DNA of 64,000 nt from a virus. Shown piece after piece: positions 13,798 through 14,843 of this stretch. The position numbers and the translations under genes were made by a program. Every line of letters starts with the position of its first letter. Position 1 is the first letter of the stretch. The notes beneath the pieces were generated by a model. That model had not been told where the DNA came from and did no database searches. It worked only from the letters and a program-made list of their open reading frames with translations. The stretch lies in the IMG/VR virus record IMGVR_UViG_3300044639_001144; one strand, written 5' to 3'.

Positions 13798-14628
13798 ATG
13801 AATCCATTGACTCAATATTTTAGACAACCTTCAATTTATATTAAATTGCCTAGCCAAGGCAATTACTACCCTGCGGGAGCTATCGAAATGCCACAAAATG
13901 GCGAGCTTCCTGTATTGCCCATGACGGCAATAGATGAAATTACATATCGTACACCTGATGCATTATTCAGTGGACAAGCAGTTATTAATGTTATACAAAG
14001 CTGTATTCCCGCTATCAAAGATGCATGGGCAATCCCATCAATTGATATTGATACCATATTAGTAGCTATACGTATTGCCAGCTACGGTCATGAAATGACT
14101 TTTGCCACAGTTTGCCCACATTGCCAAAATGATGACGAATATGCTGTTGATTTACGTACTGTACTTGAGCAAATGAAAACCCCTGATTATTCAGATCCAG
14201 TTAAACAAGGCGATATCGAAATTTACTTTAGACCAATGACTTATAAAAATTTGTCTGATAACAATAAAATTCAATTTGACGAACAACGTATTTTTCAATC
14301 GTTGCCTGATGACAAAGCCGTAGATAATGTTCAATTATCAGCTATGTCAGCAGCATTACAGCGCATGACTGAGATGACTGTATCTGCACTAAGTCAAAGT
14401 ATTTTAACCATTAAAACTCCTAGCGCCATGGTTACAGAACAAGAATATATTAGCGAATTTATGAAAAATTGTGATAGTGGATTGTTCAATCGTATTCAAA
14501 CTTATGTAGTCGATCATAAATCTGAAGCAGAGATGAAACCTATTACAATTAAATGTAATAAATGTCAAACTAATTACTTACAATCTATTACGTTGGATAT
14601 GTCGAATTTTTTCGAGCGCGCCTCCTAA
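13798..14628 (+). CDS. baseplate hub assembly protein (T4 gp26-like)
   Basis: IKLPSQG, PMTAIDE, IDIDTILVAIRIASYG, CPHC and KCNKC Zn-ribbon pairs, ends ...NFF; SD AAGGA. Confidence 0.75.
   Translation: MNPLTQYFRQPSIYIKLPSQGNYYPAGAIEMPQNGELPVLPMTAIDEITYRTPDALFSGQAVINVIQSCIPAIKDAWAIPSIDIDTILVAIRIASYGHEMTFATVCPHCQNDDEYAVDLRTVLEQMKTPDYSDPVKQGDIEIYFRPMTYKNLSDNNKIQFDEQRIFQSLPDDKAVDNVQLSAMSAALQRMTEMTVSALSQSILTIKTPSAMVTEQEYISEFMKNCDSGLFNRIQTYVVDHKSEAEMKPITIKCNKCQTNYLQSITLDMSNFFERAS
14607..14613 (+). other. putative -1 ribosomal slippery heptamer T TTT TTC
   Basis: X XXY YYZ in the correct phase, four sense codons before the stop; the -1 frame is open and joins the ORF at 14667. Confidence 0.65.
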
Positions 14629-14666
14629 TATTAGATCCTGAACGTGTTGCTACTTACATAGACAAC

Positions 14667-14843
14667 ATGGATAAAGAGATCAATGATATTAGACTTGAGG
14701 CGTTACGTATGTCTTGGTACATGAGAGGGGGATTACCTTATGATCAAGCCTTACAACTCAGTGTCGCTGAAAGAAAAATAATCAGTGATATCATCAAAGA
14801 TAATATGGAGACAACTAAGAAAAGTGGTTTGCCTTTCTTTTAA
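14667..14843 (+). CDS. small gp51-like hub assembly protein; possibly the C-terminal extension of a frameshift product
   Basis: Not in the ORF track. MDKEINDIRLEALRMSWYMRGGLPYDQALQLSVAERKIISDIIKDNMETTKKSGLPFF (58 aa); no evident SD; frame open upstream to 14613. Confidence 0.75.
   Translation: MDKEINDIRLEALRMSWYMRGGLPYDQALQLSVAERKIISDIIKDNMETTKKSGLPFF

Follow-up and report, generated by a model that had tools for sequence, protein, structure and literature searches.

A gp26-like phage gene with a conserved slippery heptamer: probable decoding into short and long forms by programmed -1 frameshift

A -1 frameshift in the tail assembly chaperone genes is reportedly conserved among long-tailed phages, as in the G/GT pair of phage lambda. 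The tail chaperones of phage P2, E and E+E', are likewise said to be produced by frameshift; in this myovirus, the -1 shift takes place at a heptamer based on six T (T TTT TTG), in a tail assembly gene beside the tape measure. Conservation of the G-T frameshift in long-tailed phages has been described as holding 'except T4' (Atkins et al. 2016, PMC5009743). In T4, the proteins gp26 and gp51 are hub assembly chaperones, and gp51 is absent from the particle (Leiman et al. 2010, PMC3004832, Table 2). Here we analyse a gp26-like gene found in a stretch of DNA of 64,000 nucleotides from an uncultured lake phage (IMG/VR virus record IMGVR_UViG_3300044639_001144; the whole stretch is called the window below). 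This gene is very probably decoded in two ways by a programmed -1 frameshift, giving predicted forms of 276 and 348 amino acids (aa). Frameshifting in the gp26/gp51 family is apparently undescribed: a literature search on gp26, on the phages RaK2 and PA5oct and on jumbo-phage frameshifting, with subscription journals outside its coverage, returned no report of it.

The slippery site and its conservation among relatives

The features of the locus are collected in Table 1. The 3' end of the gp26-like open reading frame (ORF; ORF1 below) reads ATG TCG AAT TTT TTC GAG CGC GCC TCC TAA. The run of six T (T6) occupies positions 14607-14612 and is followed by C at 14613; as (14607-13798) mod 3 = 2, the phase is AA[T TTT TTC]. 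From C14613, the -1 frame reads RARLLILDPERVATYIDNMDKEIND...GLPFF and is free of stops up to the TAA at 14841-14843, its 76 codons beginning and ending with RARLLILDPERVATYIDNMDKE...SGLPFF. The zero-frame C-terminus is thus ...MSNFFERAS*, of a predicted 276-aa product, and the junction of the predicted long product (272 + 76 = 348 aa) is ...NFF-RARLL... The -1 frame contains an ATG at 14667; no ATG, GTG or TTG is found between 14613 and this position, and no Shine-Dalgarno-like run stands upstream of it. An earlier reading of this DNA, made from its letters without database searches (the sequence-only reading), had claimed a correctly phased T TTT TTC, a -1 frame open to 14843, a small ORF lacking a Shine-Dalgarno sequence of its own, and products of 276 and about 348 aa. 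All four claims could be read directly in the sequence or follow from it as predictions. The number of heptamers was tried as a further line of evidence and rejected: the window contains 27 copies, compared to 23 expected. The heptamer alone being common, its significance must therefore rest on context, that is, on phase, position and conservation.

Table 1. Coordinates of the features at and next to the gp26-like gene
Feature	Position	Strand	Basis or remark
gp26-like gene, zero frame, 276-aa predicted short product	13798..14628	+	ORF call; predicted counterpart of T4 gp26
Slippery heptamer T TTT TTC, phase X XXY YYZ	14607..14613	+	Codons AAT TTT TTC = N F F
Zero-frame stop TAA	14626..14628	+	12 nucleotides (nt) 3' of heptamer
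-1 frame extension, 76 codons + TAA	14613..14843	+	Open frame; predicted C-terminal helical domain of 348-aa product; counterpart of gp51 tail
58-codon ORF from ATG 14667	14667..14843	+	ORF-finder listing; probably no gene of its own
Extended RNA hairpin, likely frameshift stimulator	14618..14703	+	Minimum free energy -32.5 kcal/mol, z -5.1; spacer 4 nt
Tape-measure-like gene, 1061 aa	10585..13770	-	PHROG tape-measure families; head-to-head with gp26-like gene
Second tape-measure-like paralog, 1223 aa	6903..10574	-	GH19 chitinase/lysozyme-type domain, Pfam E 1.7e-7

Among cultured phages, the closest relatives are jumbo phages, with 26-31% identity: Atu_ph07, Phosso, PA5oct and the RaK2-like group. 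In a first scan, the heptamer was found in phase in 70 of 70 related loci, 43 of which were non-redundant, with protein identities of 26-85%, and the site was present in 65 of 65 IMG/VR loci. When later scans were included, the heptamer together with an extension carrying W-x-M-R-G was encountered in 120 loci, representing 78 distinct sequences, and a hidden Markov model scan classed 151 loci as single frameshift-type genes. Ortholog alignment revealed an in-phase heptamer and an open -1 frame in all homologous loci examined. Five cultured phages were inspected by eye (Atu_ph07, Phosso, PA5oct, RaK2 and EJP2): T TTT TTC stands at the same F-F pair, a zero-frame stop follows shortly 3' of it, and a -1 frame of 69-77 codons ends at a terminator-like hairpin. 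Seven further cultured phages were added; five had TTTTTTC, and the remaining two, Ralstonia phage RsoM2USA and Stenotrophomonas phage RAS14, had T TTT TTT, a heptamer that is altered yet, as read from its letters, still slippery. With these two included, the slippery site was found in 12 cultured jumbo phages. In RsoM2USA (L134, about 1968) and RAS14 (L135, about 1827), the extension is also more divergent, with 80-82 codons and YYFRGA replacing WYMRGG.

Codon choice at the site was then considered. The residue ahead of F-F is variable (N, T, S, A, D, H or R), and its codon is always NNT. With the codon usage of these same genes taken into account, NNT plus TTT would occur by chance in 19 lineages with a probability of about 2e-9. 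TTC, a codon of 19% usage, is kept for the second F, and its C is the first base of an invariant Arg codon of the -1 frame; the rare TTC is retained because this C opens the Arg codon. Double coding therefore begins exactly where a slipped ribosome would begin reading. The zero-frame stop lies 3-33 nt past the heptamer in the relatives, and the zero-frame tail of 1 to 11 residues is variable in sequence.

An indel in the T run, introduced during sequencing or assembly, could have split a single gene into two frames, or the locus could be a pseudogene. Homopolymers are prone to indels, and single-frame long forms do exist elsewhere (see below). However, T6, its phase and the short zero-frame tail are alike in about 150 loci from many studies, including finished genomes of cultured phages. 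In addition, contigs of three lake-metagenome runs, which are not candidate sources of the DNA, reproduce the T6 run with no difference or gap; because these independent contigs agree, the run is not an assembly slip. The single-frame forms, for their part, use a different, non-slippery junction (x-F|R), and hence are not T7 variants of the same site. The probability of artefact or decay appears to be close to nil.

The downstream hairpin and the proposed decoding

The 97 bases 3' of the heptamer were folded, which gave the extended hairpin of Table 1; the ATG at 14667-14669 is paired within its inner stem. The 20 bases past the heptamer were compared with control anchors from the same gene: at 24 of 32 non-redundant loci, their pairing with downstream sequence is stronger than that of 95% or more of the controls. 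The position of the 3' arm of the hairpin differs between clades. Across the clade of the window, the share of paired cells is 73.6%, compared to 34-50% with a slid partner, and 14 pairs change on both sides, a number reached in 4 of 500 shuffles. The covariation, tested on a structure derived from the window sequence itself, lends the hairpin moderate support. No family was found at the site in Rfam. We conclude that the hairpin is likely to be a frameshift stimulator.

The decoding may be pictured as follows. Most ribosomes would read through AAT TTT TTC and reach the stop four codons on, producing the 276-aa protein. A fraction of them would be held by the hairpin 4 nt downstream, and the two tRNA-Phe on UUU UUC would slip simultaneously one base back, onto UUU UUU. 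For these ribosomes CGA would be the next codon, and the 76 residues added would form a small helical domain at the C-terminus of a 348-aa protein.

The same fused protein would also be obtained if RNA polymerase added one U on T6, a minority of mRNAs then encoding the 348-aa protein in one frame. Conservation of the homopolymer run, which reaches T7 in two lineages, is compatible with such transcriptional slippage, and sequence data cannot separate the two routes. Nevertheless, a complete, phased X XXY YYZ heptamer with a stable hairpin 4-6 nt further on is the classical ribosomal arrangement. The T6 run is clean in the three non-source metagenome assemblies, and it is short for efficient slippage, the runs known for bacterial and phage polymerases being about nine. 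Transcriptional slippage is thus considered unlikely, and ribosomal frameshifting is retained as the preferred explanation.

The extension, its in-frame counterparts and T4 gp26 and gp51

Conservation of the extension starts with codon 1 and includes the motifs R-x-R-L-L ... WYMRGG ... ETTKKSGLPFF. ORF1 and the extension were modelled with AlphaFold2 as two separate folds. The ORF1 model had a predicted local distance difference test score (pLDDT) of 84 and a predicted template modelling score of 0.79; the model of the extension (pLDDT 88.8) consists of three helices. Pfam and PHROG scans returned no family match for the extension, and Foldseek and VIA-align gave no convincing solved structure for it.

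A word search for longer proteins based on the extension profile yielded six long forms of 335-355 aa, in which the Pfam family PF12322, to which ORF1 belongs (see below), and the extension are joined in one frame. Single-frame long forms, of 319-351 aa, also accounted for 19 of the 150 top-ranking cluster representatives in an exhaustive search. Viral-contig scans with P0129 and P0144 as queries gave nothing useful. The single-frame junction is x-F|R/K/Y and is devoid of a slippery run; x is never F in these fused forms. The first F of the pair is therefore retained only where a slippery run is required. Single ORFs were confirmed on DNA for the loci L072/L073 (junction GAA TAT TTT CGG) and L168. 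In both L072 and L168, a second, short PF12322 paralog adjoins the long one and ends at the position equivalent to F-F; in L072 it follows the long gene, in L168 it precedes it.

The number of PF12322 genes per genome was examined. It was one in each of the five complete frameshift-type genomes (Atu_ph07, RaK2, PA5oct and two complete IMG/VR genomes, G004 and G005), two in T4 (genes 26 and 51), and two in each of the contigs with an in-frame long form (G001, the contig of L072, and G002, the contig of L168). Lineages without a slippery site thus appear to carry a pair of paralogs in its place, a short one and a long one. The programmed -1 frameshift put forward in the sequence-only reading is strongly supported by the comparison as a whole: the heptamer, the conserved -1 frame, the hairpin, the natural fusions and the gene counts.

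Another possibility is that two separate genes are present, the small ORF being translated from ATG 14667 as a 58-aa product, or by termination-reinitiation, and no fusion being made. ATG 14667 is invariant within the window's clade, and a 58-aa product is still conceivable. Moreover, in Atu_ph07 (L001 3004-3007), Phosso (L002 3004-3007) and L067, the zero-frame stop just past the heptamer shares bases with an ATG of the -1 frame (ATGA), and reinitiation could there yield the extension as a separate peptide. Several GenBank records also list a separate small ORF, the extension being unannotated in RaK2 and PA5oct. On the other hand, no start codon is present at the zero-frame stop of the window gene, and ATG 14667 is both devoid of a Shine-Dalgarno sequence and buried in the -32.5 kcal/mol hairpin. 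The stretch between the heptamer and this ATG, 18 codons long, is conserved at the protein level. Clades other than that of the window have L, Y or F instead of the Met encoded by ATG 14667. The -1 frame of about 14 non-redundant loci has its first ATG no earlier than codon 36, within the best-conserved motif, and that of PA5oct is entirely free of Met. In public data, the start of the extension was placed at many different positions by gene callers. Finally, the single-frame natural fusions show the extension to be the C-terminal domain of a gp26-like protein. The 58-codon ORF is probably not a separate gene, and the two-gene explanation as a whole is very unlikely, even more so than slippage of the polymerase.

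Decoding by frameshift into a short and a long protein was next set against the T4 genes. ORF1 matches PF12322 (T4_baseplate) with an E value of 1.6e-14 and 54.5 bits, for a cut-off of 24.5 (residues 59-272 on positions 42-218 of the 219 of the profile), and PHROG 150 (baseplate hub), which bears out the label 'gp26-like' given in the sequence-only reading. T4 gp26 (208 aa) and gp51 (249 aa) belong to the same family, and match the profile over its whole length with 215.6 and 177.5 bits, respectively. When single T4 sequences were compared with the proteins of the window, pairwise or with a thin profile, the result was not significant. T4 gp26 ends with ...KEFFELL, F-F being encoded by TTC TTT, and gene 25 comes next; there is no slippery site, in agreement with the sequence-only reading, in which such a pair is not a described feature of T4 gp26/gp51. 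The end of the short product at the conserved F-F corresponds to the end of T4 gp26, and the short paralogs of L072 and L168 end likewise.

T4 gp51 runs about 48 residues past the equivalent ...DVF. When the natural long forms were compared with the gp51 family alignment, an E value of 2.3e-5 was obtained, and the two were collinear through junction and tail. The comparison was then restricted to the gp51 tail alone: with an alignment of 66 extension sequences, hhalign gave an E value of 1.3e-5 (probability 81%, score 28.7), compared to a score of 9.7 +/- 1.8 for tail-only column shuffles, of which 0 out of 200 reached 28.7. With a narrower alignment of 27 sequences, the tail-only comparison yielded a P value of 0.011 only. 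The Pfam family PF28602 is precomputed on gp51 homologs. We conclude from these profile alignments that the extension is homologous to the C-terminal tail of gp51, that the predicted short product is the counterpart of gp26, and that the whole predicted frameshift product is that of gp51. The label 'gp51-like' given to the small ORF therefore holds for the tail of gp51 (E 1.3e-5), the small ORF not being a whole gp51. The gene would do the work of T4 genes 26 and 51, because both match PF12322, gp26 ends like the short product and the gp51 tail is homologous to the extension.

In T4, genes 26 and 51 are two diverged and divergently transcribed genes, whereas in the window a single gene would give both forms via the -1 shift. 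The body has 272 residues in the window and about 200 in T4, and the tail 76 and about 48, respectively. As in the T4 system, the window gene lies among hub and tape-measure genes. The ORF1 protein contains two Cys pairs widely separated in the chain, CPHC (106-109) and CNKC (253-256), which suggest a zinc site. Cys pairs are found at similar positions in T4 gp26 and gp51 (CTC...CPEC and CPKC...CC). Some long forms (P0004 and P0005) are devoid of them.

Tape-measure neighbours and comparison with the lambda and P2 chaperones

What the two forms may do can be approached through T4. The phage presumably needs both, and both would be helpers in the assembly of the central baseplate hub around the neighbouring tape-measure proteins; the long one would be the minor, 'catalytic' form, as GT is beside G in lambda. 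In the virion proteome table of phage CBB, the tape-measure-like protein CBB_251 is listed and the gp26-like CBB_250 is not.

The likeness to lambda G/GT includes a -1 heptamer near the end of the upstream frame, a shared N-terminal body with a minor long form, a tape-measure neighbour, and a presumed role in tail assembly rather than as a major part of the virion. The differences are that the body is twice as large in the window and the added part half as large, and that the lambda pair lies directly upstream of the tape measure, on the same strand and after the tube gene, whereas the window gene is head-to-head with its tape-measure-like neighbour. P2 E/E' resembles the window in its use of a T6-based heptamer for the -1 shift, but belongs to an unrelated protein family and has another genome arrangement.

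The ORF1 protein was also searched for a relationship to such chaperones. The Pfam and PHROG scans found no gpG/gpT-type family for ORF1 (T4_baseplate/baseplate hub only) and none for the extension. Foldseek with ORF1 against the PDB gave no match at E <= 0.001, and a wide VIA-align search gave generic helical-hairpin matches only (Z up to 7.2, residues 130-213), the N-terminal part being barely covered in either search; a PDB sequence search found nothing. The likeness to lambda G/GT is one of logic, not of homology. Accordingly, what can be kept of the 'G/GT-type chaperone pair' of the sequence-only reading is the analogy, that is, two isoforms, a shared N-terminal body, tape-measure neighbours and the chaperone status of T4 gp26/gp51; sequence similarity and a fold match were not part of what was found.

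Besides the invariant ATG and the ATGA overlaps mentioned above, several points weigh against the interpretation in terms of a frameshifted assembly chaperone. Frameshifting itself is deduced here from the comparison of sequences, and its efficiency at U UUU UUC would depend on the host of the phage. The chaperone role would follow from T4 genetics, and Pfam, PHROG, Foldseek, VIA-align and the PDB sequence search provided no fold or sequence link to the lambda-type chaperones. The short paralogs that accompany in-frame long forms were checked in two lineages only (L072/L073 and L168). Finally, the locus L032 (2080-2980, 2976-3828) has an extra short PF12322 paralog directly upstream of its frameshift-type gene, a situation not predicted by a simple rule of one gene or two; L032 may be an intermediate between the two arrangements.

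A more general scheme can be proposed, in which we place somewhat less than even confidence. The PF12322 proteins could be the counterpart, in the T4 superfamily and the jumbo phages, of lambda G/GT, and the two-isoform logic could be universal in phages with a tape measure, T4 having swapped the frameshift for a gene duplication. The short form would then coat the tape measure, and recruitment of the hub or of the tube initiator would fall to the helical tail of the long form. Whether or not this scheme holds, the gene indicates that relatives of T4 very probably do use a tail-assembly frameshift of this type, but in the gp26/gp51 family, which suggests a reason for the T4 exception. The poorly understood T4 proteins gp26 and gp51 could simply be read as two forms, one short (gp26) and one long (gp51), of a single ancestral assembly helper. 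Frameshift in a single gene, tandem paralogs and divergent paralogs would together constitute a natural experiment on the ratio of two isoforms. The annotation of many genomes would also be corrected, since the extension is either unannotated or called as a separate hypothetical ORF.

Head-to-head placement of the gp26-like gene with the tape-measure-like genes, also claimed in the sequence-only reading, was confirmed, the facing start codons being at 13798 and 13770. This divergent arrangement is kept in RaK2, PA5oct, EJP2, CBB, 121Q, L072 and L168. In the 1061-aa tape-measure-like protein, a repeat unit about 35 residues long (ALGLNRSISSGPGYADGGLVKDPKNDP) occurs three times in tandem. In Yersinia phage fHe-Yen9-04, the gp26-like gene g243c (L137 1201-2076) bears the name 'Lead, cadmium, zinc and mercury transporting ATPase', which is clearly a wrong annotation.

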